DNA from: a virus
Taxonomy: Duplodnaviria; Caudoviricetes
Length of the DNA: 64,000 bases
Direction: 5' to 3' (one strand)
Virus record (IMG/VR): IMGVR_UViG_3300030330_006022
Location: 1-64,000 of that record
Part shown: positions 8,978 through 28,007 of the stretch, piece after piece
How the letters are laid out: every line of letters begins with the position of its first letter
How positions within the stretch are numbered: the stretch's first letter is position 1
The notes under the pieces: generated by a model
Database searches by the model: none
What the model was told of the DNA's origin: nothing
What the model saw: the letters and a program-made list of their open reading frames with translations, nothing else
Made by a program: the position numbers and the translations under genes

Positions 8978-9272
8978 AAACCAAATAATAAATAAAAACA
9001 TGTCAAAAGAGCAAGCGATATTGTACTACTTGTTTATTGATGAACAATTGTTGTGCGCATGGTGGGATTATCTTGACGCTTGGGAACATGTAAAAGATAA
9101 TAATATTGCTGAAGCGACAGAGTTTAGAGAAAAAGTAATGCAGACCATGGCTGTGGTTGAATACTGGGAAGACATTCTTGATCAATTAAAAAAGATAATA
9201 TCTTATCAAGATATTGAAGACTATATCAGAGAGCACCCAGAAATAAAAAAATCCTATCTTTTTATGAGATAG
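8967..9272 (+). CDS. hypothetical protein
   Basis: ORF with GGAGG RBS. Confidence 0.55.
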   Translation: MKLENQIINKNMSKEQAILYYLFIDEQLLCAWWDYLDAWEHVKDNNIAEATEFREKVMQTMAVVEYWEDILDQLKKIISYQDIEDYIREHPEIKKSYLFMR

Positions 9273-9275
9273 GAC

Positions 9276-9304
9276 TTGACAGATTAATGTTATCGTGTTA
9301 TAAT
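9276..9304 (+). promoter_or_regulatory. sigma70-type promoter at the left edge of the early island
   Basis: TTGACA-N17-TATAAT, TG extended -10. Confidence 0.8.
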
Positions 9305-9323
9305 ATATAAATGGAGGAACAAA

Positions 9324-9668
9324 ATGACAGAAGAAATAGATAATATTTTAAATTACCTTAAAAAAACTGGGCTAAATTCTATTGACACTAGATCACCAGC
9401 TTGGAAATTATTACATAATAATAAAGTTGACATTCCGATGTCACCGAAGTCAAATAAAATAATTGACATTACGATGAAAGAAGAAAACGGACAAAAAATG
9501 ACCGTTGGTCTTTTGGTGCGACACAGGACAGTTCCACAACTTGGTCTTGGACTTGTTGTCGCTGAGAGCAAGAAACACAAAGGCTATTGGATAGTCCAAT
9601 GGTGTGATAAGCGATACTGTGACGTTGGTGAACTAGGTATTGATCGAGATTATTTGGTGATTGTTTGA
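9324..9668 (+). CDS. hypothetical protein; C-terminal half is a VGxLV mini-domain
   Basis: GGAGG RBS; MTVGLLVRH..LGLVV..YWIVQW. Confidence 0.55.
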   Translation: MTEEIDNILNYLKKTGLNSIDTRSPAWKLLHNNKVDIPMSPKSNKIIDITMKEENGQKMTVGLLVRHRTVPQLGLGLVVAESKKHKGYWIVQWCDKRYCDVGELGIDRDYLVIV

Positions 9669-9671
9669 AAA

Positions 9672-9715
9672 CGGACATTTTTTGACCTTGTTAGATTTGG
9701 CTTGCGTGTTATAAT
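9672..9715 (+). promoter_or_regulatory. palindrome + promoter (abutting class)
   Basis: CGGACATTTTTTGACC|TTGTTA-N16-TATAAT. Confidence 0.75.
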
Positions 9716-9738
9716 ATAAGAGAACAAGCGAGGTGAAT

Positions 9739-9909
9739 ATGATTATGTCTAAATACAAAGTCGGTGACTTAGTGTTGCTTGAAATGACAGATGGTGAAAC
9801 TAGATTGTATGTTGTCATAAGCGAATTATTAGGCTGTACAATAAAAGTAAAAAACATAGCAACAGGAAGAATTGATCGTATGCCACCACGTTGGTTTACA
9901 AAGTTATAA
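9739..9909 (+). CDS. SH3/KOW-like mini-protein (56 aa, not in ORF track)
   Basis: GAGGTG RBS; MIMSKYKVGDLVLL. Confidence 0.75.
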   Translation: MIMSKYKVGDLVLLEMTDGETRLYVVISELLGCTIKVKNIATGRIDRMPPRWFTKL

Positions 9910-9912
9910 AAA

Positions 9913-9956
9913 CGGACATTTTCTGTCCTTGATTTATTTTTGGTTCGTGTTATATT
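9913..9956 (+). promoter_or_regulatory. palindrome + promoter (abutting class)
   Basis: CGGACATTTTCTGTCC|TTGATT-N16-TATATT. Confidence 0.75.
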
Positions 9957-9979
9957 ATAAAAGAACAAGCGAGGTGAAT

Positions 9980-10162
9980 ATGAAAGTAGGCGATTTAGTA
10001 TGGTCATTAGTTTTGAACTCCTTAGATGGAACAGTCATAGAAAAACGATTGGCAATAATTGTTGAGATAGGTGCTGATCCTTTTAATCCATATTGGATAC
10101 AATTGATTTCAAATGGACGAGAGGGTAAGACTTGTGAAAAATATCTTGCCCAAGTGGATTAA
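9980..10162 (+). CDS. SH3/KOW-like mini-protein
   Basis: GAGGTG RBS; MKVGDLVW. Confidence 0.75.
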   Translation: MKVGDLVWSLVLNSLDGTVIEKRLAIIVEIGADPFNPYWIQLISNGREGKTCEKYLAQVD

Positions 10163-10170
10163 AACCAAAA

Positions 10171-10214
10171 CGGACATTTTTTGACCTTTACAAATAAACA
10201 TAACCTGTTATATT
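10171..10214 (+). promoter_or_regulatory. palindrome + promoter (abutting class)
   Basis: CGGACATTTTTTGACC|TTTACA-N16-TATATT. Confidence 0.75.
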
Positions 10215-10254
10215 ATAAATGTCAAGATTTTTTTTATTTTTTTTCGGAGGTATT

Positions 10255-10434
10255 GTGAAAATAGGAACATTAGTGCGAATAATAAACCTTTGGCATCCAA
10301 CTCAGAAAGGTGCTATGGGTATTATAGTAGATAGAGGAGTTCACCACGATGGTGAATGGAAGTATGAAATTTTATTCCCTAGTGGAGACAAAAGTTGGTG
10401 GACAAAACGTCGCTTGGAGGTGCTATGCAAGTAG
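10255..10434 (+). CDS. SH3/KOW-like mini-protein
   Basis: GGAGG + GTG; MKIGTLVR...LEVLCK. Confidence 0.75.
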   Translation: MKIGTLVRIINLWHPTQKGAMGIIVDRGVHHDGEWKYEILFPSGDKSWWTKRRLEVLCK

Positions 10435-10586
10435 GTGATTTAGTAAGATTTGATTATGATCATGTGATTGGTGTTGTTATGAGAGTAGACTATGACTTCG
10501 AGTATGGAATGATGTATCGTGTCGCCTTTGTTGATGGTAGTGTGGAATGGTGCATAGAAGATGATTTGGAGGTAGTATGCGAATAG
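10425..10586 (+). CDS. SH3/KOW-like mini-protein
   Basis: MQVGDLVRF...LEVVCE; 10-nt overlap with both neighbours. Confidence 0.8.
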   Translation: MQVGDLVRFDYDHVIGVVMRVDYDFEYGMMYRVAFVDGSVEWCIEDDLEVVCE

Positions 10587-10771
10587 GAGATTTAGTAAGA
10601 ACCAAAGAGACTTATCTACCAAAGCCACGTCCTTTAGGTCTTATTGTCGGATCAAAAATCTGGGATCAAAAAGGTCATGGCTATGGCAAACTAACATTTT
10701 TAGTACAGTTTGTTAATGATACTAGTCCGACATGGTGGACAGAAGATTTTTTGGAGGTAATATGCGAGTAG
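10577..10771 (+). CDS. SH3/KOW-like mini-protein
   Basis: MRIGDLVRT...LEVICE. Confidence 0.8.
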   Translation: MRIGDLVRTKETYLPKPRPLGLIVGSKIWDQKGHGYGKLTFLVQFVNDTSPTWWTEDFLEVICE

Positions 10772-10956
10772 GTGATTTAGTATGGGCAAGGTGGGCTGAG
10801 CAATGCATAGGTATTGTTATTGGCATTATTTTTGACGAAACAGAGGTAGAGTATTCTTATCGTATAAAGTGGCTTTTTCAATCTCCATACGAGTCAAGAG
10901 AATACATAGAAGATTTAGTCACAAAGGAGGAGAAATGCTCAAAACAGGAGATTTAG
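10762..10956 (+). CDS. SH3/KOW-like mini-protein
   Basis: MRVGDLVWA. Confidence 0.8.
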   Translation: MRVGDLVWARWAEQCIGIVIGIIFDETEVEYSYRIKWLFQSPYESREYIEDLVTKEEKCSKQEI

Positions 10957-11096
10957 TACGTCTGTATGGATACTTGGAACGTAAGGAGATAGGTATAATC
11001 TTACGTCATAACCCACGCTTTTTTTCATATACTATTTATTGGGTAAAAACAGGTAAGATAAATGCAGTATCTACTTCGGATGTGAGGTCATTATGA
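10935..11096 (+). CDS. SH3/KOW-like mini-protein
   Basis: AAGGAGG RBS; MLKTGDLVRL. Confidence 0.75.
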   Translation: MLKTGDLVRLYGYLERKEIGIILRHNPRFFSYTIYWVKTGKINAVSTSDVRSL

Positions 11097-11287
11097 GAAG
11101 AAAAAAGAAGTTAAAGGTCGGAATGTTGGTGCGTGTAATCAACAGGCACACAAGCGAGATTATGCCCGAAATGTATGTAATAGTGGAGAGAATGGTTGGG
11201 GGTCTGTGGGCAATATCCCCTGTCGGTGACTTGACAATAGAAAGGCACTATCACACAAAATCCCTAAAGGAGGTAAAATGCAAGTAG
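11093..11287 (+). CDS. SH3/KOW-like mini-protein
   Basis: LKVGMLVRV...LKEVKCK. Confidence 0.75.
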   Translation: MRRKKKLKVGMLVRVINRHTSEIMPEMYVIVERMVGGLWAISPVGDLTIERHYHTKSLKEVKCK

Positions 11288-11442
11288 GTAGTTTAGTAAA
11301 GATAAGTCAATCAAACATTGGAGACAAAGGGAAGTTCGCTATTGTTGTGAAAATGTATCCAAATAACGCAGTAATACACGTTGTAGATACTGGGGAAGTA
11401 TGGAACTATGCCCTTTATAACTTGGAGGTGCTATGCAAGTAG
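11278..11442 (+). CDS. SH3/KOW-like mini-protein (54 aa, not in ORF track)
   Basis: MQVGSLVKI...LEVLCK. Confidence 0.8.
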   Translation: MQVGSLVKISQSNIGDKGKFAIVVKMYPNNAVIHVVDTGEVWNYALYNLEVLCK

Positions 11443-11648
11443 GCGATTTAGTGAGGATAAAAAAGGCTTGGATAAGTATGTACGAGGGCTACGAGGATAC
11501 TGTAGGGCTAGTGGTGTATGCCGATAGTGGCTATGGGGGAGAAAGACCTGTGGGATTTCGTAGGATTAGAATACTTCATGGCGATATGAACGGTCAAATC
11601 TATTCCGTATTTGCCGAAGAAGTCTTGGAGGTGGTATGTTCAAAGTAG
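11433..11648 (+). CDS. SH3/KOW-like mini-protein
   Basis: MQVGDLVRI...LEVVCSK. Confidence 0.8.
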   Translation: MQVGDLVRIKKAWISMYEGYEDTVGLVVYADSGYGGERPVGFRRIRILHGDMNGQIYSVFAEEVLEVVCSK

Positions 11649-11791
11649 GTGATTTAGTGATAGATTATTGTGGTGACATAGGTGTTGTTGTAAAAAAAGT
11701 AAACTGTGATTGTTGGAAAGTACACTACACAGATAGGTGGATACGCAATATGTGGGTTGCTGATATAGAGAGGTTAGTATGTTCAAAGTAG
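11636..11791 (+). CDS. SH3/KOW-like mini-protein (51 aa, not in ORF track)
   Basis: MFKVGDLVIDYCGDIGVVV...LVCSK. Confidence 0.8.
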   Translation: MFKVGDLVIDYCGDIGVVVKKVNCDCWKVHYTDRWIRNMWVADIERLVCSK

Positions 11792-11934
11792 GCGATTTAG
11801 TGATAACTTATTGTGGTAATATAGGTATTGTCGTATATTCCTCAGACTGTGATTGGTGGACAATACACTACATAGACGGTACTGGTGAGGGTAATATGTG
11901 GACAACAGAAATAAGGTTATTATGTTCAAAATAG
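11779..11934 (+). CDS. SH3/KOW-like mini-protein (51 aa, not in ORF track), paralog of 11636
   Basis: MFKVGDLVITYCGNIGIVV...LLCSK. Confidence 0.8.
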   Translation: MFKVGDLVITYCGNIGIVVYSSDCDWWTIHYIDGTGEGNMWTTEIRLLCSK

Positions 11935-12092
11935 GTGACTTAGTAAAATATAAAAAGAGTTCTGTTGATGACGATAGTGTTGGCTTAGTTGTGAAGCAAA
12001 ACCCTATCTACAAAAAGTTTTGGCTTATTCAATGGATTGATGGATCAAAATACCAAGAGAACGAAATGCATTTGGAGGTAGTATGCAAGTAG
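11922..12092 (+). CDS. SH3/KOW-like mini-protein
   Basis: MFKIGDLVKY...FWLIQWIDGSKY..LEVVCK. Confidence 0.8.
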   Translation: MFKIGDLVKYKKSSVDDDSVGLVVKQNPIYKKFWLIQWIDGSKYQENEMHLEVVCK

Positions 12093-12259
12093 GAGATTTA
12101 GTCAGATACAAAAAGTCATTCACAAATAACTGTGACTATATGGGCTTAGTTATAGAACGAAAACCATTATCACGAACAAAAAAATTTTGGCTTATTCAAT
12201 GGATTGATGGATCAAAGTACATAGAGGACGAAAAAAACTTGGAAGTGGTCAAAAAATGA
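12083..12259 (+). CDS. SH3/KOW-like mini-protein (58 aa, not in ORF track), paralog of 11922
   Basis: MQVGDLVRY...FWLIQWIDGSKY..LEVVKK. Confidence 0.8.
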   Translation: MQVGDLVRYKKSFTNNCDYMGLVIERKPLSRTKKFWLIQWIDGSKYIEDEKNLEVVKK

Positions 12260-12299
12260 CCGTTTTGAATTTGACAGGATTGTCACAAACAGTTATATT
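12247..12299 (+). promoter_or_regulatory. palindrome + promoter (9-nt-gap class)
   Basis: GGTCAAAAAATGACC-N9-TTGACA-N17-TATATT. Confidence 0.85.
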
Positions 12300-12326
12300 A
12301 TAAACATCAATCAAACGGAGGACGTT

Positions 12327-12548
12327 ATGAAACAAAAAGTAATAGTACTACAAATCAGATTTAGTGGTGACGATAACACAATCTATGTCTGTAAGACCTT
12401 TGAGATAGCCCACAGGATTATCAGAGAGTGGTTCAAGGATAGTATTGAGGACATAAACACTTATGGCATAGGCGACCTAGAGGATGAACTATGGGAGAGA
12501 GACATAGGCTACTGGGAGGTTACAGAGGAGGTAGTGATATGCGAGTAG
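12327..12548 (+). CDS. hypothetical protein ending in the junction repeat
   Basis: GGAGG RBS; ends EEVVICE but lacks the VGDLV start. Confidence 0.7.
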   Translation: MKQKVIVLQIRFSGDDNTIYVCKTFEIAHRIIREWFKDSIEDINTYGIGDLEDELWERDIGYWEVTEEVVICE

Positions 12549-12691
12549 GTTCATTGGTAAGACACATAGAGCATGAATTCTTTGCTATTGCGACACAATG
12601 GTATCACGATAACACTTGGCTTGTGGTACGGATAGATAATGCTATTTGCAATTGGTATAGCGAGTGTGAGTTGGAGGTTCTATGCGAGTAG
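12539..12691 (+). CDS. SH3/KOW-like mini-protein
   Basis: MRVGSLVRH...LEVLCE. Confidence 0.8.
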   Translation: MRVGSLVRHIEHEFFAIATQWYHDNTWLVVRIDNAICNWYSECELEVLCE

Positions 12692-12840
12692 GTTCTTTGG
12701 TAAAGGTTCGGCATAGAGGTAGTAGAATAGCAAAAATCGGTCTAATCACATATATAGACAATCAAATAGCCAAGTTGGTATGGGTAAACGGTGAAAAAGG
12801 TGCGATACACACAAAGTGGTTGGAGGTATTATGCGAGTAG
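12682..12840 (+). CDS. SH3/KOW-like mini-protein (52 aa, not in ORF track)
   Basis: MRVGSLVKV...LEVLCE. Confidence 0.8.
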   Translation: MRVGSLVKVRHRGSRIAKIGLITYIDNQIAKLVWVNGEKGAIHTKWLEVLCE

Positions 12841-13019
12841 GTTCTTTGGTAAAGTTTGCTCACCGTTGGATGGATGATACCCATATCGGTGTTGTTATGG
12901 GTTATTGGACTCACGATGTGTCTGAGGAACAACACATATTGGTTTGTTGGCTGACAGGAAGATACACAGGTGACACAGACGCAATCATTGAGAGCGATTT
13001 GGAGGTATTATGCGAGTAG
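12831..13019 (+). CDS. SH3/KOW-like mini-protein
   Basis: MRVGSLVKF...LEVLCE. Confidence 0.8.
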   Translation: MRVGSLVKFAHRWMDDTHIGVVMGYWTHDVSEEQHILVCWLTGRYTGDTDAIIESDLEVLCE

Positions 13020-13174
13020 GAACATTGGTAACAAGTAGGTGGAACTATTCTATGGGTATAGTCTTGTTGATAGGTACACACTATGGCGATGAATGGGTAC
13101 AAGTAAAATGGATTGTGGACACAAGTCTTGACCCATTTCAGTATACTCACGACTTGGAGGTATTATGCGACTAG
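13010..13174 (+). CDS. SH3/KOW-like mini-protein (54 aa, not in ORF track)
   Basis: MRVGTLVTS...LEVLCD. Confidence 0.8.
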   Translation: MRVGTLVTSRWNYSMGIVLLIGTHYGDEWVQVKWIVDTSLDPFQYTHDLEVLCD

Positions 13175-13395
13175 ATATAGATAAACAATCAATAAGAGTA
13201 GGTTCTTTGGTTATGTGGAATAGAAAATCCTCAAATGACTATGGTTGCATGGGTATAGTCACCGATTTTTATTTTGAAGAACAAGATGGTGACAAACCTA
13301 TTTTAGAATTCTCAGTTCTTTGGGCAGATAATGATAGGGTTGACTATGACTATAACGATCTACTTAAGGTGTTTCTAAAAGTGGTCATTTTTTGA
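13165..13395 (+). CDS. SH3/KOW-like mini-protein
   Basis: IRVGSLVMW..MGIV..LKVVIF. Confidence 0.75.
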   Translation: MRLDIDKQSIRVGSLVMWNRKSSNDYGCMGIVTDFYFEEQDGDKPILEFSVLWADNDRVDYDYNDLLKVFLKVVIF

Positions 13396-13435
13396 CCGTT
13401 TTGGATTTGACAAATAAAACTAAACAGATTATGTT
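13383..13435 (+). promoter_or_regulatory. palindrome + promoter (9-nt-gap class)
   Basis: GGTCATTTTTTGACC-N9-TTGACA-N17-TATGTT. Confidence 0.8.
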
Positions 13436-13462
13436 AACAACATCATTCAAACACAGGAGGTA

Positions 13463-13801
13463 ATGATGATTAGAACTTGTAAACATTGTGAAGATGAATT
13501 CGACTGTCAGAGTGCTGAAAAGCAACGAGTGGGGGGCTACATTAACGAGTGTCCCGATTGTGTCGAGGAACTGGGTACGGAGACACACGTTAGGTACAGG
13601 GGTTGTGTATCAGGTGAGAGTAAACAAGCCTGTATATCCATCTTGTCCTTTGACAGCGAGAAAGATGCCGACACTTATCAGAAGAAGTGGGAAGCCAATC
13701 GTGGTTGGAATAACCAACGCAAGGGTGGTCTTAACGACATTAAGTTTAAGACAGTCACAGTCAACAATGCTGGCGACAGTAAACGTAAAACAGACCAATA
13801 G
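13463..13801 (+). CDS. zinc-ribbon protein
   Basis: CKHC...CPDC. Confidence 0.7.
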   Translation: MMIRTCKHCEDEFDCQSAEKQRVGGYINECPDCVEELGTETHVRYRGCVSGESKQACISILSFDSEKDADTYQKKWEANRGWNNQRKGGLNDIKFKTVTVNNAGDSKRKTDQ

Positions 13802-13813
13802 GAGGGTACTACT

Positions 13814-14074
13814 ATGGTGGGTACACTTATAAAAACAATGCCACAGGATCAACTTTTTGTTGGTTTAGTCTATGAGTGGTTTTATGATTTTGATGGTGAG
13901 GGTACGATACACGTTGAAGTTAGGTGGAACGACTGTGACGATACAACCGAAATATTTCACGAGTACGAGGACTACGATGTATCTGAATATCACTTCTATC
14001 ACAAAGGTCGTTGGTGGCTTATACAGGAAAACTTTTATAAATTTTTGCAAGTACTGGAGGGCAAATGCAAATAG
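13814..14074 (+). CDS. SH3/KOW-like mini-protein
   Basis: MVGTLIK..VGLV..VEVRW..LEGKCK. Confidence 0.7.
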   Translation: MVGTLIKTMPQDQLFVGLVYEWFYDFDGEGTIHVEVRWNDCDDTTEIFHEYEDYDVSEYHFYHKGRWWLIQENFYKFLQVLEGKCK

Positions 14075-14244
14075 GTGATTATGTAAAGTTCAACAACAAC
14101 GAGGGTGACTTGGAGGAGACACTTTGGGAGGTTGTTGGTTTTGAGGAGAGGGGTGGTCGTGCTTTTGTTCTTATAAAACACCCCACCATAGGTGGTAGGT
14201 ACTCATTCCCTAAAGATGAGGTTGTAGAGGTGATAAGTGGTTAG
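14065..14244 (+). CDS. SH3/KOW-like mini-protein (59 aa, not in ORF track)
   Basis: MQIGDYVKF...VVEVISG. Confidence 0.75.
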   Translation: MQIGDYVKFNNNEGDLEETLWEVVGFEERGGRAFVLIKHPTIGGRYSFPKDEVVEVISG

Positions 14245-14452
14245 TGTTGGCGATTTATGTTGGGATATAGTAACAGAGACACTATGGATTATCTCAGATA
14301 TTTGGTGGTGTGGTATAACAGACGACTACAAATACGACCTTACTTCTGTAACATTTGGTGCTACTATTGTAACCAACGACCAAGTTGCTATCTGTATGAG
14401 AGCTGACTTCTTAAAACGGACAAAAAATGTCCTAGACAAATCTGAGGAATAA
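14237..14452 (+). CDS. SH3/KOW-like mini-protein
   Basis: GAGGTG + GTG; VSVGDLCW. Confidence 0.65.
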   Translation: MVSVGDLCWDIVTETLWIISDIWWCGITDDYKYDLTSVTFGATIVTNDQVAICMRADFLKRTKNVLDKSEE

Positions 14453-14460
14453 GTTATATT
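14417..14460 (+). promoter_or_regulatory. palindrome + promoter (abutting class)
   Basis: CGGACAAAAAATGTCC|TAGACA-N16-TATATT. Confidence 0.75.
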
Positions 14461-14485
14461 ATAAACATCAACAACGGAGGACGTT

Positions 14486-14704
14486 ATGAAAAAACGAGAA
14501 CCACCAAAGATAGGTGATTTGGTCTGTCTTACTTACAACACAGACACCATAGGCATTGTAACAGAGGTGTCGGATTGGACAAATACAAAGTTTCGCTACA
14601 AAGTCGAATGGCTCAAAGATAGTGACAAAGTATTGAGTAGGCAAAATGGAGTAAACTTCGGTCACTATTGTGATAGTGTCTTGTTACACTTGGAGGAAAA
14701 ATGA
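14486..14704 (+). CDS. SH3/KOW-like mini-protein
   Basis: PKIGDLVCL..IGIVTEV..YKVEW. Confidence 0.75.
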   Translation: MKKREPPKIGDLVCLTYNTDTIGIVTEVSDWTNTKFRYKVEWLKDSDKVLSRQNGVNFGHYCDSVLLHLEEK

Positions 14705-14895
14705 TAGTAAAACTAGGCGATTTAGTACAGATAAAAATCCCAACAGAACGAAGTGATCCAAATGATATTTGGCTTGTAATCGGTTGGAACAATTGGAACG
14801 ATTACATAAGGATACAGAATGTCCATAATGGATACGTTTGCCAATATAACTTGAGATTACTGAAACACTTCAAATCGGAGGAAGTATGCAAATAA
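14701..14895 (+). CDS. SH3/KOW-like mini-protein
   Basis: KLGDLVQI..IWLVIG..RIQNVHNG. Confidence 0.75.
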   Translation: MIVKLGDLVQIKIPTERSDPNDIWLVIGWNNWNDYIRIQNVHNGYVCQYNLRLLKHFKSEEVCK

Positions 14896-15095
14896 AAACA
14901 GGCGATTTAGTTTATAGAAAGCAACATAGGGCATTTAACAACCCACACGACTACGAGATTTGGCTTGTGATTGGTACAGACGCACGAGAAAGAGGTCAAT
15001 TCAAAGGCTTTGTGAGGATACAGAATGTCCACAACGGTAACAGGATACAATGCAACGCAAATATGCTGATGAAAATAGAAACGGACAAAAAATGA
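14886..15095 (+). CDS. SH3/KOW-like mini-protein, paralog of 14701
   Basis: KTGDLVY..IWLVIG..RIQNVHNG. Confidence 0.75.
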   Translation: MQIKTGDLVYRKQHRAFNNPHDYEIWLVIGTDARERGQFKGFVRIQNVHNGNRIQCNANMLMKIETDKK

Positions 15096-15135
15096 CCGTT
15101 TCGGATTTGACAAGCAATTCAAAATCAATTATATT
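15082..15135 (+). promoter_or_regulatory. palindrome + promoter (9-nt-gap class)
   Basis: CGGACAAAAAATGACC-N9-TTGACA-N17-TATATT. Confidence 0.85.
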
Positions 15136-15167
15136 ACATTTACATTCAACAACAAACGGAGGTCTTT

Positions 15168-16233: not shown

Positions 16234-16235
16234 TA

Positions 16236-21290: not shown

Positions 21291-21428
21291 ATGTCTAAAA
21301 AAACCCCTAAAAAACGAAACATCATTCATCAAGTACATATCGAACAGAACCGAAAGGCTGGCTCTCACAGAGACAAATCGAAGTACACACGAAAAGATAA
21401 ACATAAAAAACAACCACAGGAGGACTAA
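21291..21428 (+). CDS. 45-aa basic peptide with ArfA-like tail (not in ORF track)
   Basis: GGAGG RBS; MSKKTPKKRNIIHQVHIEQNRKAGSHRDKSKYTRKDKHKKQPQED; TAATG coupling to the next gene. Confidence 0.65.
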   Translation: MSKKTPKKRNIIHQVHIEQNRKAGSHRDKSKYTRKDKHKKQPQED

Positions 21429-21730: not shown

Positions 21731-22166
21731 ACTATCAGAACATTTCAAGGCTAGGACACCATTCAAATATAACAAAGAAGTTCACTTCGATGGTACAAAG
21801 ATTATCGCCACAGAGGTCAGATGGACAAGGGATCAAAATGGACGTTGGTTTAGACAAAAACTAAATGACCAAATCGTCCTTGCCGAGTATGTCCAACACA
21901 ACGGCAAAGAGTACGCAGTTGTCTACAATCGTGGTAACAAGTGTTTCGCCACAGAGGTTATGATGTGGGGTTTCAATAATAAATACAGAAGTCACTCCCT
22001 TACAAACCTCCAATATGGCGAGATTGGTAAACCTGTTAAAGACCAACAACGTGCCTATCGTTGCCAAATGATTGACGCATTGATTTATAGTGGTGTCATA
22101 TCCCACATTCTTATCCCCACCACACTCAATGGTGATAGCAAGTTCTTCGAGTTGGAGGGGATATAA
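21717..22166 (+). CDS. hypothetical protein
   Basis: GAGGAGG RBS before ATG 21717. Confidence 0.6.
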   Translation: MSYSKLSEHFKARTPFKYNKEVHFDGTKIIATEVRWTRDQNGRWFRQKLNDQIVLAEYVQHNGKEYAVVYNRGNKCFATEVMMWGFNNKYRSHSLTNLQYGEIGKPVKDQQRAYRCQMIDALIYSGVISHILIPTTLNGDSKFFELEGI

Positions 22167-22173
22167 ATAAACT

Positions 22174-22226
22174 CGGTCAAAAATTGTCCGTTTGACGTTT
22201 GCAATATCCTGTGAATCAGTTATAAT
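22174..22226 (+). promoter_or_regulatory. palindrome + promoter (9-nt-gap class)
   Basis: CGGTCAAAAATTGTCC-N9-TTGCAA-N16-TATAAT. Confidence 0.8.
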
Positions 22227-22255
22227 ATAAACATAATCGAAACACAGGAGGTCAA

Positions 22256-22450
22256 ATGAACATAGGAGATTTAGTCAGATACACAGACACATACGATATA
22301 CACAACATTGGTGTCGGCTCTATCGGACTTATTATCGGAGAGTTGTCTAACAAGGTTGAACAACCACGAAGAACAGGACGTTTTTACTATGTCCTTTTCG
22401 GAGATAAACAATATACACTACCTTTTCACCATATACAGGAGGTCAAATGA
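22256..22450 (+). CDS. SH3/KOW-like mini-protein
   Basis: MNIGDLVRY...IQEVK. Confidence 0.8.
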   Translation: MNIGDLVRYTDTYDIHNIGVGSIGLIIGELSNKVEQPRRTGRFYYVLFGDKQYTLPFHHIQEVK

Positions 22451-22671
22451 ACATAGGAGATTTAGTAACGTGGAAGTTGGACGTTTACAATAAAAAAGCC
22501 ATATTGGAATATGGTATTGTTATCGGATACTTCAATGGCAAGACAAGTTATAGAAGAAATGCCTGTGTATGGGTGAAGTTTTCAAGTGGTCAACACTCCC
22601 ATAGAGAGAAAACCTTATGTGCTATCGAACAACTTGTCCTTGCTAAGGACATAAAACAAAAACGGACATAA
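22447..22671 (+). CDS. SH3/KOW-like mini-protein
   Basis: MNIGDLVTW; 32-nt RBS/start block identical to the preceding gene. Confidence 0.8.
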   Translation: MNIGDLVTWKLDVYNKKAILEYGIVIGYFNGKTSYRRNACVWVKFSSGQHSHREKTLCAIEQLVLAKDIKQKRT

Positions 22672-22706
22672 ATTGTCCTTGCAATATTCTGAGAACAGGT
22701 TATATT
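22663..22706 (+). promoter_or_regulatory. palindrome + promoter (abutting class)
   Basis: CGGACATAAATTGTCC|TTGCAA-N16-TATATT. Confidence 0.8.
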
Positions 22707-22734
22707 ATAAGTACATTCCAACACAGGAGATCAA

Positions 22735-22941
22735 ATGCTAGAAAAACTAAAAGAAACTCTAACTTATATCAACAACACTCCAGTTCAAGACATAGACCTT
22801 GACATTCTATTTGAGATAATAGAAGAATACAATACCCTTTATATCGACCCAGACGATGAGTGTCCTTTAGAGTCCTGTATGCTTGGTGACATTGAGGTGG
22901 CATTTTATAACGCACAAGATATTCAAAAAAATGAAGAATAA
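22735..22941 (+). CDS. small acidic hypothetical protein
   Basis: AGGAG RBS. Confidence 0.6.
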   Translation: MLEKLKETLTYINNTPVQDIDLDILFEIIEEYNTLYIDPDDECPLESCMLGDIEVAFYNAQDIQKNEE

Positions 22942-22974
22942 ATAACCAACAACATCAATCAATCGGAGGACATA

Positions 22975-23187
22975 ATGAATAATAAAAAAGTAGAACGAAA
23001 ATCACTTATTGATTTAGGGAGAAGTAAATACTGGTATGTGGTTTACACAGATGGGTCTTATGAACAAATCCCTGTAATCGAAACCAAATCAACAAAAAAA
23101 GATTTTCACCTATCTTCTGAGGAAGAAGATGCGATACTAGAGACTTATCTTGAATTCAAAAACAAAAGAGGACAAAAACGGACATAA
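22975..23187 (+). CDS. hypothetical protein
   Basis: GGAGG RBS. Confidence 0.6.
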   Translation: MNNKKVERKSLIDLGRSKYWYVVYTDGSYEQIPVIETKSTKKDFHLSSEEEDAILETYLEFKNKRGQKRT

Positions 23188-23222
23188 TCTGTCCTTGCAA
23201 ATATCTGAGAACAGATTATATT
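23179..23222 (+). promoter_or_regulatory. palindrome + promoter (abutting class)
   Basis: CGGACATAATCTGTCC|TTGCAA-N16-TATATT; near-copy of the 22663 promoter. Confidence 0.8.
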
Positions 23223-23247
23223 ATAAATACAACAACAGGAGAATACA

Positions 23248-23724
23248 ATGGAATATACATCACAGATTGCTGATATGCTACATAACCCACAACACCCCCG
23301 ATATAGCGATGAATGTTTTAATACTGACTTAATGGCTTATATATTAAAGGACAATACTTTATATGGAGTAACAAATATATGGTGTAGAGATTTCAGACGT
23401 TGGTTAGAGACATACGATATTATTGTGCCCGATAACAGAAGAATGTATACTCCTATTGGTAAACTTGAAAATGGCAAGATTATTGGATATAACACACAGT
23501 TTGCTAATATGGGTAACACGTTCTTGGAGATGGTTGAGACAACAAGAGATAAAGCCTTTTCAAATCTTTACTTCGTAGAAGTTGGATTACATCCATATCC
23601 AAAGTTGGCTAGGTATCGACACACTTGGTTGATAGATAACTACCACAGAGATTGTCACATACTTCTTAATCCACCCACAGACCCGAAAAAGTTCTTCATT
23701 TTGCCAAAGGACTTAGTACCCTAG
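23248..23724 (+). CDS. hypothetical protein
   Basis: AGGAG RBS. Confidence 0.6.
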   Translation: MEYTSQIADMLHNPQHPRYSDECFNTDLMAYILKDNTLYGVTNIWCRDFRRWLETYDIIVPDNRRMYTPIGKLENGKIIGYNTQFANMGNTFLEMVETTRDKAFSNLYFVEVGLHPYPKLARYRHTWLIDNYHRDCHILLNPPTDPKKFFILPKDLVP

Positions 23725-23906
23725 TACACTCCTCCTATCTACCCTACTACCCCACTACCCCTATGGGCTATCTAAAACGCAATCTATCCGTAGATACAAG
23801 CCTGTAAACGGTAGGATTTTAATAAACACTAACTTCGATATAGTATACACATATACATATCAGATACATCAACCACATAACTAGCACCACAACGGAGAAA
23901 TCGCCT

Positions 23907-24155
23907 ATGTCTAACGAAAATAATCAACAAAAACTTTTCAAACCTGTCGTAACCGACACTTTCACAGCCTGTGGTATTATTGAGGGGTTCGTTGAAATTC
24001 CCGATGGTGTGGACGAAGAACAAGCACACATACAGGCATGGCAATACTTAATCGACACAGGTGCGTGTTGGTCGTTACAGGGGTTTTACGGACGTAACGC
24101 ACAGGCTTTAATCGAACAAGGTATATGTACACGACCCACGACACAAAACTCTTGA
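23907..24155 (+). CDS. conserved phage hypothetical protein
   Basis: AWQYLIDTG.CWSLQGFYGR.A..LIE.G motif. Confidence 0.7.
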   Translation: MSNENNQQKLFKPVVTDTFTACGIIEGFVEIPDGVDEEQAHIQAWQYLIDTGACWSLQGFYGRNAQALIEQGICTRPTTQNS

Positions 24156-24208
24156 CAGGTTTTCAAGTATCACCTAGAACAGATTGAGTGTTATACACTT
24201 AAAACCCC

Positions 24209-24249
24209 GACTTCCTAAGGATCGAAAGTCTTGACGGAAGTCTTTTTTT
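24209..24249 (+). terminator. intrinsic terminator
   Basis: GACTTCC...GGAAGTC stem followed by a T-tract. Confidence 0.6.
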
Positions 24250-24292
24250 GTCAAGGATAAATAATTGACATTACGATAATAAGATTGCTTTT

Positions 24293-24345
24293 CGGTCATT
24301 TTTTGTCCAACTTCCATTTGACAGGATCACCAAATCGGTTATGTT
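24293..24345 (+). promoter_or_regulatory. palindrome + promoter (9-nt-gap class)
   Basis: CGGTCATTTTTTGTCC-N9-TTGACA-N16-TATGTT. Confidence 0.8.
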
Positions 24346-24375
24346 ACTAACATCACCAAAACAACGGAGGTTCAA

Positions 24376-24495
24376 ATGGACTTACTTCTTATCATCACTC
24401 TATCAGGACTCTTTTGGGGATTACTCTGTATCCTTTCGGAAGTAGCAACAACAATTCATCGGTCAGAAACTGTCCGAAAACGATTTGACAGATAG
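24376..24495 (+). CDS. 39-aa single-pass membrane peptide (not in ORF track)
   Basis: GGAGG RBS; MDLLLIITLSGLFWGLLCILSEVATTIHRSETVRKRFDR. Confidence 0.6.
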   Translation: MDLLLIITLSGLFWGLLCILSEVATTIHRSETVRKRFDR

Positions 24496-24513
24496 AGATT
24501 TTGAGGTTATATT
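24460..24513 (+). promoter_or_regulatory. palindrome + promoter (9-nt-gap class)
   Basis: CGGTCAGAAACTGTCC-N9-TTGACA-N17-TATATT. Confidence 0.8.
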
Positions 24514-24540
24514 ATAAACATCACTTCAACGGAGGACAAT

Positions 24541-24612
24541 ATGGCAATCGCTTTTATTATGCTACTTGTTATTCTATCACCAATCTATATTCACGTCTTT
24601 ATGGAGGACTAA
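24541..24612 (+). CDS. 23-aa hydrophobic peptide (not in ORF track)
   Basis: GGAGG RBS; MAIAFIMLLVILSPIYIHVFMED. Confidence 0.55.
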   Translation: MAIAFIMLLVILSPIYIHVFMED

Positions 24613-24614
24613 CT

Positions 24615-24791
24615 ATGAATGAATACATCAACCTTACCAACAAACAACTATCCGAAATGTTTTACAAGTCACGTATTGCAGTGAATTCTTTGACTAAATC
24701 AATGTCTAGTAATGATAGACAATATCTTATCAAAAGGCATAAAGATTTATCAGCAGAGATATTACGACGTGGTACAGCCTTTTTATTGTAA
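24615..24791 (+). CDS. hypothetical protein
   Basis: GGAGG RBS before ATG 24615. Confidence 0.6.
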   Translation: MNEYINLTNKQLSEMFYKSRIAVNSLTKSMSSNDRQYLIKRHKDLSAEILRRGTAFLL

Positions 24792-24792
24792 T

Positions 24793-24846
24793 CGGTCAAT
24801 TTCTGTCCGTTTCACATTTGACAAATCTTTTCAACCCTGTTATATT
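24793..24846 (+). promoter_or_regulatory. palindrome + promoter (9-nt-gap class)
   Basis: CGGTCAATTTCTGTCC-N9-TTGACA-N17-TATATT. Confidence 0.85.
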
Positions 24847-24874
24847 ATAAACACTTAACCAATCGGAGGTCACT

Positions 24875-25129
24875 ATGACACTAGAACAAATCATCAACGC
24901 ATTTATCAATCACACATCGGAAGTAAAAGGTCGCTATGGACTGTCGATTCGTGGAGGTGCTTTATATTCTTACAATCTCAAGATTGCTGAACATATCTTG
25001 GGCTCACGTCAAATCATCGTCTATGACTACATGGCGACAGGTTCACGTGGAATGGTGTCGGCTACTACTAGCAAACACGTTGGTATGATTAAACGTGCTG
25101 TTCCTCAGAACTGTTTAGAACTACGATAA
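24875..25129 (+). CDS. conserved phage hypothetical protein
   Basis: LYSYNLKIA...SATTSKHV motif. Confidence 0.65.
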   Translation: MTLEQIINAFINHTSEVKGRYGLSIRGGALYSYNLKIAEHILGSRQIIVYDYMATGSRGMVSATTSKHVGMIKRAVPQNCLELR

Positions 25130-25184
25130 TCTTCTTCCTTACTACCTACTACCCTACCCCTCTACCCCTCTATAGGAGCATAAT

Positions 25185-25454
25185 ATGAAATATTCAAAAA
25201 AACAAAAATCATTATCTCAACCTGTCATCGACTTATTGTCGCACATGTCGAAACTTGTGGACAAGGGTCTCACCCCTGTTGAAGCTGTCGAATGGATGCA
25301 AGAGATTGAACCACAATGGCGATGTAGTCGTGGTTATCCAGCAACAACAGGAGGATTGCGACAGGCACGACAACGTCTTGAACGTAAAGTTGAGATGATG
25401 AAACAGGTCAACAATGGTGTCACAACCTTTATTAACAACAAACCAAAGCAATAA
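25185..25454 (+). CDS. small basic hypothetical protein
   Basis: AGGAG RBS. Confidence 0.6.
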   Translation: MKYSKKQKSLSQPVIDLLSHMSKLVDKGLTPVEAVEWMQEIEPQWRCSRGYPATTGGLRQARQRLERKVEMMKQVNNGVTTFINNKPKQ

Positions 25455-25464
25455 GGAGCTTATA

Positions 25465-25647
25465 ATGGAATCTTTATACGATAGGAACACAATATGTAAC
25501 AAAGATGGAATGATGATCTCCCTCGCACTCGCAACAGCTATGGAGGAACTTGAAAAAGCACGTGAGGAAGGTGATGAACAAGGTGAAATGATGATGAACA
25601 TCGCTGTTAATATGCTACTTGAACAAGTTGAGCCCATAGAGGAGTAA
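25465..25647 (+). CDS. small acidic hypothetical protein
   Basis: AAGGAG RBS before ATG 25465. Confidence 0.6.
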   Translation: MESLYDRNTICNKDGMMISLALATAMEELEKAREEGDEQGEMMMNIAVNMLLEQVEPIEE

Positions 25648-25663
25648 AAAGGGCTCTTTTTTT
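25630..25663 (+). terminator. possible intrinsic terminator
   Basis: GAGCCC-N15-GGGCTC followed by T7. Confidence 0.45.
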
Positions 25664-25707
25664 GTCAATAGAAATTAATTGACATTACGATAAGTTCAAT
25701 GACCAGT

Positions 25708-25764
25708 CGGACATTTTTTGTCCGTTTTGAGTTTGACAACCTCATTTTTATAGGTTATTATAAT
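25708..25764 (+). promoter_or_regulatory. palindrome + promoter (9-nt-gap class)
   Basis: CGGACATTTTTTGTCC-N9-TTGACA-N17-TATTAT(AAT). Confidence 0.8.
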
Positions 25765-25788
25765 AGTACATTCTAACAAGAGGTTTTT

Positions 25789-25944
25789 ATGAAAATAGAA
25801 AGTAAAGCAATAATTCGTCGTCGTATCCAACAACTTGAGGCAGATATCAAATCAGTTCGTAATAGTGGGAACACTTACAGAATGAGAATTCTGTATGCAC
25901 AATTGTCGGCTGCAACGATAAAGTTAGTCAATATGAAAAACTAG
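25789..25944 (+). CDS. 51-aa basic helical peptide (not in ORF track)
   Basis: GAGG RBS; MKIESKAIIRRRIQQLEADIK... Confidence 0.6.
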   Translation: MKIESKAIIRRRIQQLEADIKSVRNSGNTYRMRILYAQLSAATIKLVNMKN

Positions 25945-25996
25945 GACATTTTCTGTCCGTTTTGGATTTGACAAACCCTTTTTTATTGGTTATAAT
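25944..25996 (+). promoter_or_regulatory. palindrome + promoter (9-nt-gap class)
   Basis: GGACATTTTCTGTCC-N9-TTGACA-N17-TATAAT. Confidence 0.88.
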
Positions 25997-26027
25997 ATAG
26001 TATATTCTTTTTCATAGGAGGTCTTAG

Positions 26028-26624
26028 ATGACTAAAAAAACATTCACCATTCAAATCACCCCTATCAGAGCACCATTTATGAGGTGCCGACAGGATGCCG
26101 TTCCTACCGTATGTAAAAAGTATGTCAACGGAAAGGTCGAATATCACGAGTTTCGTTGGAATAACCCGAAGGCTGGGCGTAATATTATGTGGAAGGATAA
26201 TCCCGACACCATCGAAGAAAGAGAGCAATACAAGCAACAGTTTGCTGATAGAGTACAACGTGCGTTCGATAAAGCAAACATCCGTTTCTTTAAGCACTAC
26301 AACGGAATAAAGTTTGAGGACGAAATCGTACGTGTCTATGCTCCTTATCCCGACATTGCTCCAAATGCGACTATCACAGTATACTCTCAACGTGTCCACG
26401 AATACAACGCACATCGCGACTTTTTACGTGACATAGTCTCTAAGATGAACATTCAGTTCAATACTTTAATGTGTGTCCTCCAACAGGGCAAATACGACCT
26501 AGCCAAAGGTTCCCTTTACAAGCTCAATAAATATATGTTTGATTTACAATCAATGTGTCGTCCCGACCACCACGAGGTTGTTTTCAAGGGCAAAGTTAAT
26601 CCCCTCACAGCCAACCTTAAATAG
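26028..26624 (+). CDS. hypothetical protein
   Basis: AGGAGG RBS. Confidence 0.65.
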   Translation: MTKKTFTIQITPIRAPFMRCRQDAVPTVCKKYVNGKVEYHEFRWNNPKAGRNIMWKDNPDTIEEREQYKQQFADRVQRAFDKANIRFFKHYNGIKFEDEIVRVYAPYPDIAPNATITVYSQRVHEYNAHRDFLRDIVSKMNIQFNTLMCVLQQGKYDLAKGSLYKLNKYMFDLQSMCRPDHHEVVFKGKVNPLTANLK

Positions 26625-26625
26625 A

Positions 26626-26679
26626 CGGTCAAAATCTGTCCGTTTTGGACTTCTCAAATCATCATTTTTGTGTTATATT
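26626..26679 (+). promoter_or_regulatory. palindrome + promoter (9-nt-gap class)
   Basis: CGGTCAAAATCTGTCC-N9-TTCTCA-N17-TATATT, TG extended -10. Confidence 0.75.
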
Positions 26680-26711
26680 ATATAAGTATTCAATCAAAAG
26701 GAGTTATGAAT

Positions 26712-27074
26712 ATGTCAAAAAAATCATCTGAAAAATCCCGTTTACGACGTGCTATTTCACAACAACTATATCGCTCTCACGAACGACTTCTTGAGGAAGC
26801 TCTTGAGCAAAAGCCCGAAGTCACAGACTTATTGAAGTTACGTGCTATGTACCCCGACTATGACGTGGATAAGTTACTACGTTTACAACGTCTTAATATG
26901 AAAATCAATCAAGCGAACGACTTCCTCATAGAGGAGCAATCAGCTTGGCTTGACCCATCATCCCGTCCATCAGGAGGTATTCCTTACAATGAAGAACTCT
27001 TTGGCAAACCATTCGCTTCTGACGATGATAATGCTGAGGACATCAATGCTGAGGTCTACGACGAAGAAAACTAG
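26712..27074 (+). CDS. hypothetical protein
   Basis: AAGGAG RBS; basic N-terminus, acidic C-terminus. Confidence 0.6.
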   Translation: MSKKSSEKSRLRRAISQQLYRSHERLLEEALEQKPEVTDLLKLRAMYPDYDVDKLLRLQRLNMKINQANDFLIEEQSAWLDPSSRPSGGIPYNEELFGKPFASDDDNAEDINAEVYDEEN

Positions 27075-27075
27075 T

Positions 27076-27128
27076 CGGTCATTTTCTGTCCATTTTGGAT
27101 TAGCAATCTTTTTAATCTATGTTATAAT
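27076..27128 (+). promoter_or_regulatory. palindrome + promoter (9-nt-gap class)
   Basis: CGGTCATTTTCTGTCC-N9-TAGCAA-N16-TATAAT, TG extended -10. Confidence 0.75.
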
Positions 27129-27156
27129 ATTATTACTTAATCAATCGGAGGGCTTT

Positions 27157-27225
27157 ATGCTTTTAATCTTTTCACTCTTTGCTACTTTATTCTTCTCTCT
27201 CTTTATTCTCACAGGCATATTATAA
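27157..27225 (+). CDS. 22-aa hydrophobic peptide
   Basis: GGAGG RBS; MLLIFSLFATLFFSLFILTGIL. Confidence 0.55.
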   Translation: MLLIFSLFATLFFSLFILTGIL

Positions 27226-27274
27226 TCGCCACTAACTTTAACCCCTTTATCACTTACTTTATTCGGAGGTCTTT

Positions 27275-27457
27275 ATGACTCAAATCTCAATCTCTCAATG
27301 GTTATCTTCTCAATCTACTCCTCTACCACGTTATCAAGTCGTATCTTCTAAGAAGTTCTACGGTCACTTCGATGTTCTCGACACTCACACAGGAACACGT
27401 GAACCTTGTGGGAATCTTCGGACAGCACGGGCTACTGTTAAACGTCTCAACAAGTAG
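27275..27457 (+). CDS. hypothetical protein
   Basis: GGAGG RBS. Confidence 0.6.
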   Translation: MTQISISQWLSSQSTPLPRYQVVSSKKFYGHFDVLDTHTGTREPCGNLRTARATVKRLNK

Positions 27458-27513
27458 ACTACTTCTATCCCTCTATCACTCTATTATTTTACTACTACTC
27501 TAAGGAGCCCACT

Positions 27514-27804
27514 ATGGCTAAACTAAACACCAACAACTTTATCAAACCTCTTAAAGAGGACTTAGATGAAAATGTTGTTCAACACGCCCGCATATCAGAG
27601 AATGCAATCATCGATATTATCAACCCCGTTACGGGCACACTTGACCAAATCAAGATAACTCACAAGCCTTACGTCTCTGACGACATTGTAAAGGTGATGT
27701 ACATCATCGACACAGAGGGAAGAGACCGTTCAAGTCCTGAACCTTTTGAGGTACTAGTTACCGACCTTAATGACCTATACGATTGGATACTCATAGAGGA
27801 ATAA
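27514..27804 (+). CDS. hypothetical protein
   Basis: AAGGAG RBS. Confidence 0.6.
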   Translation: MAKLNTNNFIKPLKEDLDENVVQHARISENAIIDIINPVTGTLDQIKITHKPYVSDDIVKVMYIIDTEGRDRSSPEPFEVLVTDLNDLYDWILIEE

Positions 27805-27831
27805 ATACAACCGTTTATCTTTAACCCTTTC

Positions 27832-27858
27832 AACCGATGTTTGTTCATCGGTTTTTTT
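27832..27858 (+). terminator. intrinsic terminator closing the early island
   Basis: AACCGATG-tttgtt-CATCGGTT followed by a T-tract. Confidence 0.8.
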
Positions 27859-28007
27859 ATTATGTCATAGTCGTTGTTGTTGACCCCCTCCCCCTACCTA
27901 TACCGACCAAATAAGTCCGCGATAGACGGCGTTTTCGCGCAGCTCGCGCCAGGTACATTATATACCCACAGCAAATTTCCGAGATTTCAAATATCACCCC
28001 ATGTTCT

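Follow-up and report, generated by a model that had tools for sequence, protein, structure and literature searches.

Results

An early transcription domain purged of short restriction sites

We analysed a 64-kb window, the first 64,000 nucleotides of the 114,350-bp IMG/VR viral contig IMGVR_UViG_3300030330_006022 (G000 in the genome comparisons), in which one block of approximately 18.9 kb combines a dense array of small early genes with the complete absence of several short restriction sites. The block holds a single plus-strand transcription domain that opens with a consensus promoter, closes with an intrinsic terminator and contains 22 further promoter units (Table 1), and no such unit was found in the other 95 kb of the contig. 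In each unit a stem-loop precedes a near-consensus sigma-70 early promoter, which is the arrangement described for the stem-loop and early-promoter cassettes (PeSLs) of T4-type hyperplastic regions (Comeau 2014, PMC4122927; Arbiol 2010, PMC2839356). From the 22 confined sigma-70 promoters and the strong ribosome-binding sites, the domain is predicted to carry the earliest genes of the phage, transcribed by unmodified host RNA polymerase; judged by these signals, the block is one giant hyperplastic region of 22 PeSL-type cassettes and approximately 62 mini-genes.

The purge tracks this early transcription domain as a functional unit. The last named site on the left, a GCGC at 9055, precedes the first early promoter, and restriction sites return 65 bp beyond the terminator. 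The small minus-strand unit that converges on the terminator lies outside the purge and carries CGCG, GCGC, CCWGG and CCGG.

Table 1. Features of the block and its right border (window coordinates)
Feature	Coordinates	Strand	Remarks
Site-free interval	9056..27936	.	0 GGCC, CCGG, GCGC, CCWGG, GGWCC, CCNGG; 4-6-bp palindromes strongly depleted
Early transcription domain	9273..27853	+	~62 tightly packed genes, mostly 45-110 aa, strong GGAGG ribosome-binding sites
First early promoter	9276..9304	+	TTGACA-17-TATAAT with TG; 3 bp past the stop of the last upstream gene
22 PeSL-like units	9489..27128	+	stem-loop GGWCM-N5-KGWCC (15 bp), then near-consensus sigma-70 promoter TTGACA-N17-TATATTATAAAC
Stem-loop starts, units 1-11	9489, 9673, 9914, 10172, 12247, 13383, 14418, 15083, 17443, 18096, 19773	+	
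Stem-loop starts, units 12-22	20063, 22175, 22664, 23180, 24294, 24461, 24794, 25709, 25944, 26627, 27077	+	
Paralogous mini-gene array	9739..17226	+	~30 genes of 50-75 aa; N-terminus M(R/Q/K)VG(D/S/T)LV
DUF2201 metallopeptidase with VWA-like domain	18179..19414	+	411 aa; kept in all relatives, 55-90% identity
MoxR-type AAA+ ATPase	20158..21216	+	kept in all relatives, 58-96% identity
Intrinsic terminator closing the domain	27832..27853	+	8-bp stem, then T run
Small minus-strand unit	27860..28296	-	ORFs of 60 and 83 aa; perfect promoter TTGACA-17-TATAAT at 28296-28268

The first-pass annotation of the window, based on a manual scan, had reported that GGCC, CCGG, GCGC and CCWGG are missing from 9059-27936, between GCGC sites at 9055 and 27937. 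Exact counting gave the same bounding sites and the same zeros, and added GGWCC and CCNGG to the list of absent sites. The more than 20 sites that had been noted in the first 9.1 kb came to 27 copies in the first 9.06 kb, and the immediate resumption on the right proved correct, with named sites at 27937, 27946, 27949 and 28210. Across the whole 114-kb contig the block is the longest site-free gap (16.9–18.9 kb, depending on the site set), and the runner-up measures 2.2 kb. Two statements of the annotation had to be revised: GATC, said to be retained, is depleted 2.6-fold (25 observed versus 64–74 expected), and CGCG, said to occur about once, has three copies (26415, 27918 and 27936), the last two of which lie beyond the terminator and thus outside the real domain.

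Null models do not account for the gap

For the four named sites taken together, the density in the flanks predicts 43 copies in the block and a first-order Markov model of the block predicts 71 (22.6 + 19.4 + 9.7 + 19.1), versus 0 observed. A maximal-order Markov model still expects 15 CCGG, 22 GGCC and 6 GCGC, each again with none observed. We also permuted synonymous codons within each of the 62 called plus-strand genes 500 times, which keeps the protein and the per-gene codon usage, and obtained an expectation of 36.6 copies of the four named sites. Shuffle means were 14.7 ± 3.3 for GGCC, 9.0 for CCGG, 8.1 for GCGC, 8.3 for GGWCC and 4.8 for CCWGG, all of which are absent from the block, and a count of zero was reached in 0 of 500 shuffles for GGCC, CCGG, GCGC and GGWCC. 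Hexamer palindromes, of which the block has 120, numbered 235 ± 11 in the same shuffles. Because the Markov and shuffle nulls still expect sites, composition, dinucleotides and codon usage do not account for the gap; counts at expectation, or a depletion reducible to codon or dinucleotide bias, were the outcomes that the first-pass annotation had set against its own proposal, and these models speak otherwise.

Outside the block, the same sites in G000 are near expectation (observed/expected: CCGG 54/44, CCWGG 72/68, GGCC 55/87, GCGC 35/44), so that the four named sites are not avoided genome-wide in this phage. Other sites are: GGATCC (0/8) and CTGCAG (1/13).

The annotation was right that the block does not look GC-poorer than its flanks; it is in fact GC-richer (39.0% versus 33.8% in the rest). 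CpG O/E (observed-to-expected ratio) is 0.79 in the block versus 0.53 in the rest, and GpC O/E 0.68 versus 1.04, the low GpC value being due to the removal of GGCC, GCGC, AGCT and GCWGC. In the left third of the domain (window 9000-14000) the GC skew climbs to +0.30 to +0.36, and at the right end it drops to −0.17, even though every gene is on the plus strand.

The depletion extends to palindromes in general

The observed/expected scan of 4–6-mer palindromes against a Markov background, which the first-pass annotation had proposed as a check, revealed a depletion specific to palindromes. In the block, palindromic 4-mers had a median O/E of 0.40 and non-palindromic ones of 1.01 (p = 2e-5), and the corresponding 6-mer medians were 0.21 and 0.93 (p = 2e-11); outside the block, palindromes were only mildly low (median O/E 0.84 for 4-mers and 0.77 for 6-mers). 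As many as 36 of the 64 hexamer palindromes are absent from the block, and their total of 120 compares with 287 expected. The purge of the listed sites was real but not confined to G+C-rich sequences, as CATG (18/82), AATT (44/157), TTAA (58/146), AGCT (15/40), GAWTC (6/40) and CCGC/GCGG (2/31) are depleted too, together with the absent or rare hexamers TAATTA (0/11), TTTAAA (1/14) and AACGTT (0/6). The sole over-represented hexamer palindrome in the block is TTATAA, whose excess arises because the extended −10 box is repeated. We also looked for an entry gradient within the domain; in G000, 4-mer O/E climbed from 0.59 at the left to 0.80 at the right, but neither the 6-mers nor the related genome G004 gave a consistent trend, and the idea was dropped.

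The breadth of the depletion bears on a non-selective cause, by which the block would have been emptied through biased codon or amino-acid use in a repeated gene family, through strand composition, or through faster decay of methylated cytosines in weakly constrained genes. The left half of the block would suit such a cause, with its approximately 30 paralogous mini-genes and a GC skew as strong as 0.36. However, the Markov and codon-shuffle nulls expect 37–71 sites where none is seen, the paralogue-free half (17–28 kb) is purged equally, and palindromes made of A and T only are depleted as well, AATT and TTAA among them. No decay is seen at synonymous sites elsewhere in the genome, as the CCGG count there illustrates, and a search of five genomes turned up no gene for a C5 methyltransferase. 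We regard a non-selective origin as scarcely credible.

Close relatives share the purge with changing site sets

With the MoxR protein as a query, we retrieved eight related IMG/VR loci from marine metagenomes. Two of them, G001 (191.5 kb) and G002 (192.6 kb), are rated complete by CheckV. Both carry genes for a major capsid protein of the gp23 type (PF07068, E = 1e-61) and for a large terminase of the gp17 type (Terminase_6N match; T4 gp17 structure 3ezk, E = 9e-40); Terminase_6C (PF17289) gave no match in the terminase search. The part of the genome with the capsid and terminase genes is missing from the G000 contig, and the assignment of G000 goes through these two relatives: the phage is, on the evidence of their genes, an uncultured marine member of the T4 superfamily, a T4-like myovirus with a genome of roughly 190 kb, of which the early domain makes up roughly 10%. 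The nearest cultured terminases are those of Flavobacterium phage immuto (47% identity), Microcystis phage Mel-JY01 (44%) and cyanomyoviruses (32%). The consensus −35 and −10 boxes and the GGAGG ribosome-binding sites nonetheless argue against a host in the Bacteroidota, despite the terminase resemblance to a Flavobacterium phage.

G003, G004 and G005, which are close relatives, have the same site-free interval, coinciding in each with its own PeSL domain. In G000, G001, G003, G004 and G005, the most improbable gap of each 4-, 5- and 6-bp palindrome was nearly always the early domain. Hexamer-palindrome O/E inside versus outside the domain was 0.42 versus 0.90 in G000, 0.55 versus 0.92 in G001, 0.79 versus 0.95 in G002, 0.71 versus 0.91 in G003, 0.54 versus 0.89 in G004 and 0.32 versus 0.93 in G005.

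The sets of missing sites differ between lineages. The more distant G001 keeps CCGG and GGCC in its domain and has purged others there: CTAG (0 versus 52 expected inside; 194 versus 343 outside), GGWCC (2/31.5), CCSGG (1/19.5) and GGSCC (2/25.6). Alongside these domain-only purges are genome-wide losses, namely CCWGG in G001 (1/254), AGCT in G002 (3/785), and GCGC (0/53), CCWGG (0/75) and CGCG (1/35) in G003. N6/N4 methyltransferase genes occur sporadically among the genomes. The existence of genome-wide purges indicates that the phage DNA is restrictable and not generally modified, and that whatever shields the remainder of the genome covers most specificities but not all.

Orthologous genes show that the purge evolved in place. 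Of the early-domain genes, only MoxR and DUF2201 are well conserved throughout the relatives; in the G000 clade, their orthologues contain no GGCC, CCGG or GCGC except for one GGCC in G004, whereas those of G001 and G002 contain 11 and 19 such sites, respectively. GroEL, which is outside the domain, carries sites of the GGCC/CCGG/GCGC type in every genome. Together, the domain-limited depletion and the lineage-specific site sets point to a changing set of restriction enzymes that acted on the domain alone.

These comparisons also bear on the proposal that the block was recently acquired as a foreign island, or joined on by chimeric assembly, with a phage that avoids these sites genome-wide as its source. 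The deviating composition of the block (GC, CpG and GpC) could be read in that way, but the domain is GC-richer than the rest by 1–7 points in all six genomes, and the offset is therefore a property of the domain and not a sign of recent import. Both block edges are bridged without mismatch by contigs of three independent studies, the domain is syntenic in five relatives with a divergence similar to that of the flanks, and the site-bearing early orthologues in G001 and G002 place the loss of sites within the resident genes. A foreign or chimeric origin thus appears highly improbable. On the comparative data, the shuffle null and the in-place purge of orthologues, we rejected foreign origin, chimera, codon bias and methyl-cytosine decay (deamination).

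Gene content of the domain and its surroundings

Gene-by-gene identity between G000 and G003–G005 ranges from approximately 30% to 97%, with some genes missing or rearranged. Contigs from three independent marine runs contain many alternative joints between stem-loop/promoter or paralogue positions (for example, 10193-21278, 10225-12996 and 20501-25944, within window 8500-28499), an observation that fits cassette shuffling among co-occurring strains. In the assembled run contigs, no position was found at which molecules start or stop. The junctions between mini-genes consist of a repeated TTGGAGGTnnTATG that comprises the ribosome-binding site and the start codon, with the stop codon overlapping the start of the next gene. 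Mini-proteins with the M(R/Q/K)VG(D/S/T)LV N-terminus are also encoded at 22256-22671, and the isoelectric points of the family range from 4.0 to 10.2.

The MoxR and DUF2201 proteins are the only family assignments in the block. The 411-aa protein is labelled 'HNH endonuclease' by PHROGs; Pfam places it in DUF2201/VWA-like and lends no support to the nuclease label. Among the 30 block proteins scanned with PHROGs or Pfam, no known anti-restriction or defence family was found, and the first-pass suggestion of an anti-defence module is accordingly not borne out by these families. The window contains no tRNA gene and no Rfam family, which rules out the block as an array of RNA genes.

Directly upstream of the domain, a GroEL-type chaperonin is encoded at 4334-5905 (phrog_5725, E = 3e-137); its G003 counterpart is split over two overlapping matches, suggestive of a frameshift or sequencing error. 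Elsewhere in the window are PhoH, glycosyltransferases and a late sigma factor, the last by a weak match only (phrog_234, E = 4e-4). A C-rich tract, CCCCCTCCCCCTACC, lies at approximately 27885-27899, between the early terminator and the minus-strand unit.

Nucleotide searches of GenBank phages with the block and its flank gave no match, nor did tblastn with a 1304-aa protein, and no relatives were found with a 547-aa flank protein. The MoxR homologue was not found in Flavobacterium phage immuto or Microcystis phage Mel-JY01.

Comparison with known leading regions

The same palindrome scan detected no localised purge in immuto, Mel-JY01, RB49, KVP40 or SPO1, so neither the method itself nor T4-like genomes in general produce the signature. 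RB49 and KVP40 are the phages in which PeSLs were defined, and they differ from G000 in this respect. T4-type PeSL hyperplastic regions resemble the block in that promoter units flank small variable ORFans and close relatives vary at the level of cassettes; they are, however, several and interspersed, whereas the block is a single 18.6-kb domain. The portions of the two descriptions drawn on here (PMC2839356, PMC4122927) do not report restriction-site depletion for such regions.

The closest parallel in kind is the first-step-transfer (FST) DNA of phage T5, to which the first-pass annotation had compared the block. T5 FST DNA has no EcoRI sites, and gaining one there renders the phage sensitive (bioRxiv 10.1101/866236); in our scan of T5, the first EcoRI site did not occur before 30,220. 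Like the block, the FST segment is a contiguous early stretch without sites that the rest of the genome carries and tolerates, with small, mostly unknown genes read by the host polymerase. The analogy thus held in kind but not in degree, as the T5 signal is much weaker: O/E in FST DNA versus elsewhere was 0.64 versus 0.80 for palindromic 6-mers and 0.84 versus 0.96 for 4-mers, compared with a hexamer O/E of 0.42 versus 0.90 in the block, over a stretch twice as long. T5 itself is a siphovirus with a 10-kb terminal repeat, an A1/A2-dependent second-step transfer and a 1.6-kb non-coding injection-stop region.

Two further systems are similar in part. In the T7-like Murciavirus, only Type I motifs in the variable, early-injected region set sensitivity (NAR 2025, PMC12455610). 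That region shares with the block a unidirectional early organization, strong host-type promoters and a terminator at its end. It differs in that the motifs are of Type I and the phages are podoviruses, which have short direct terminal repeats and whose entry is driven by transcription, whereas the block has lost Type II-like palindromes in a T4-like myovirus. In conjugative plasmids the leading region, which is the first-entering DNA, is depleted of targets of restriction–modification (R–M) systems and enriched in anti-defence genes (cited in PMC12455610), but it enters as a single strand by conjugation and belongs to another kind of element.

A similar purge in the S-PM2 ORFanage

Cyanophage S-PM2 (NC_006820.1) contains at 4700-15700 a region of approximately 50 small plus-strand ORFans known as the ORFanage, reportedly described by Mann in 2005, and we found a domain-limited palindrome purge there. 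O/E inside versus outside was 0.45 versus 0.84 for palindromic 4-mers and 0.34 versus 0.86 for 6-mers; CTAG (5/25), TCGA (4/24), GTAC (5/25) and TGCA (14/48) were depleted in the region only, and CCGG (0/152) and GGCC (28/225) were lost genome-wide. The ORFanage therefore resembles the block in its small same-strand ORFans, in belonging to a T4-like marine phage, in the strength of the purge and in its two tiers. It differs in having few PeSLs and in being dispensable in the laboratory. No sequence homology was found between the ORFanage and the early domain, and the S-PM2 literature that we searched contained no mention of a restriction-site or palindrome purge of the ORFanage.

Directly downstream of the ORFanage, read density is elevated 2–3-fold, which has been interpreted as terminal redundancy (Puxty 2015, PMC4503421). 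A redundancy signal localised in this way implies preferred ends in S-PM2. If packaging started just downstream and headed away, the ORFanage would be among the last DNA packaged and the first ejected, an ordering that we infer, and its transcription would then run toward the free end, like that of the T5 pre-early genes. First entry is thus plausible in at least one T4-like phage.

Discussion

Why the purge is confined to the early domain

Guided by these parallels, we propose that host Type II restriction enzymes would select short palindromic sites out of the early domain only, a cut within the domain being fatal and sites in the other 90% of the genome being shielded and hence free of selection. 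The domain would adjoin a preferred packaging end, so that it would be the first DNA in the cell and would be expressed before the rest is exposed; sites beyond the coverage of the shield would instead be removed genome-wide, giving the two tiers. The first-pass annotation had likewise held that only this segment is exposed to host restriction, whether by entering first or by being expressed before the rest is protected. The pattern of selection that this requires stands, as the depletion is specific to palindromes and coincides with the early domain read by host RNA polymerase; the part that concerns exposure is weighed below. Host restriction is, in our judgement, very probably the selective agent. 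A phage gains from the loss of sites in 10% of its genome only if sites in the other 90% do no harm, so the rest must be shielded in some way, and because every established precedent of sub-genomic avoidance rests on first entry, we favour first entry as the source of the shield. By analogy with those precedents, first or polar entry may be why the purge stops at the domain borders, with chances that we put at or slightly under even. The explanation as a whole, comprising selection by restriction, its limitation to the domain and first entry, could equally well be right or wrong.

Several observations weigh against first entry. T4-type packaging is classically headful and circularly permuted, so that the entering end is random. 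The relatives have a gp23-like capsid protein and a gp17-like terminase (3ezk, E = 9e-40), and the terminase suggests by homology headful packaging here as well. Leading-region avoidance has been predicted to be irrelevant for headful packagers (PMC12455610). G001 and G002 assemble as circles with arbitrary breaks: the ends of G001 (1-276 versus 191212-191495) overlap imperfectly, at 87% identity, as do those of G002 (3-1018 versus approximately 191600-192597, 82–98% identity), and these contig ends are not physical termini but places where a circular map was broken in sequence that varies between strains. Both block edges are spanned by contigs of independent runs. With 3 bp between the last upstream gene and the first promoter, a non-coding terminus would not fit at the left edge, and neither edge has a long non-coding repeat region. 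Contig k-mer depth in the block is similar to that of the flanks (runs X1, X2 and X5), with no doubling of the kind that a collapsed long terminal repeat would give, although this is a weak measure with one figure per contig. Finally, neither an anti-restriction gene nor a staged-DNA-transfer gene was recognised among the larger block proteins with Pfam or PHROGs, T5 A1/A2 not having been compared directly.

Most of these observations would be expected if restriction were the same agent but the permuted genome entered at once, with timing or accessibility limiting the purge to the early domain. For example, only DNA transcribed by host RNA polymerase might be decondensed and reachable; alternatively, cuts elsewhere might be re-ligated once early proteins inactivate the nucleases and RecBCD. 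The T4-type terminase and capsid protein, the circular assembly maps, the lack of coverage doubling and the absence of a non-coding terminus at the block edges all suit simultaneous entry, as does the exact match of the purge to the transcription signals, from first promoter to terminator. On the other hand, with 22 independent promoters one cut would kill one small operon, and it is hard to see how every site would be lethal. A shield that from time zero protects 90% of the genome against nearly all Type II specificities has no known precedent except absence from the cytoplasm, and S-PM2 has its localised terminal-redundancy signal beside the purged region. We consider simultaneous entry rather unlikely.

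A different agent would be the phage itself, if its own early endonucleases degraded host DNA at short palindromes and the early domain avoided them. Davison proposed such a role for T5 A1 (bioRxiv 10.1101/866236), and the PHROGs label of the 411-aa early protein would fit it. The Pfam assignment of that protein to the DUF2201 metallopeptidase/VWA-like family, not to a nuclease, argues otherwise, and the missing sites comprise dozens of unrelated palindromes in a set that shifts between close relatives, which a varied pool of host R–M systems fits better. Such a mechanism would, moreover, still require the rest of the genome to be out of reach, through absence or a shield. On balance, we consider avoidance of phage-encoded nucleases quite improbable.

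Returning to host restriction, the first-pass annotation had taken the purged sites as a list of the R–M specificities of the host. This is plausible as far as it goes but too simple, as the purge takes in nearly all short palindromes and differs between close relatives; more likely, the purged set reflects the pooled R–M repertoire of the host population. For some T4-like marine myoviruses, namely this group and S-PM2, we tentatively suggest a non-random delivery in which an ORFan-rich early domain beside the preferred packaging end would enter and be expressed first, with the remainder exposed or admitted only afterwards. Such an FST-like pre-early stage would leave the palindrome-free zone as its footprint and the purged set as a readout of host-population R–M systems. 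This wider proposal is conceivable, although we would sooner expect it to fail than to hold.

Implications for T4-type phages

In kind, the phenomenon is the known avoidance of the leading-region and T5 FST type. That it occurs in the T4 superfamily, at this strength and in two tiers, and that S-PM2 also has it, appears to be previously undescribed. Sub-genomic avoidance had so far been shown only in phages with staged entry (T5 and the T7-like phages) and in plasmid leading regions; here it is well above the textbook case of T5 in strength, and domain-only purges stand beside genome-wide ones. Whole-genome avoidance statistics thus understate the pressure that R–M systems exert on phages. Random-end injection may not apply to all T4-type phages. 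In uncultured phages, the segment that is exposed first, where anti-defence genes are expected, can be found by a simple scan of the sequence, and the signature in S-PM2 makes the idea testable in a cultured system.

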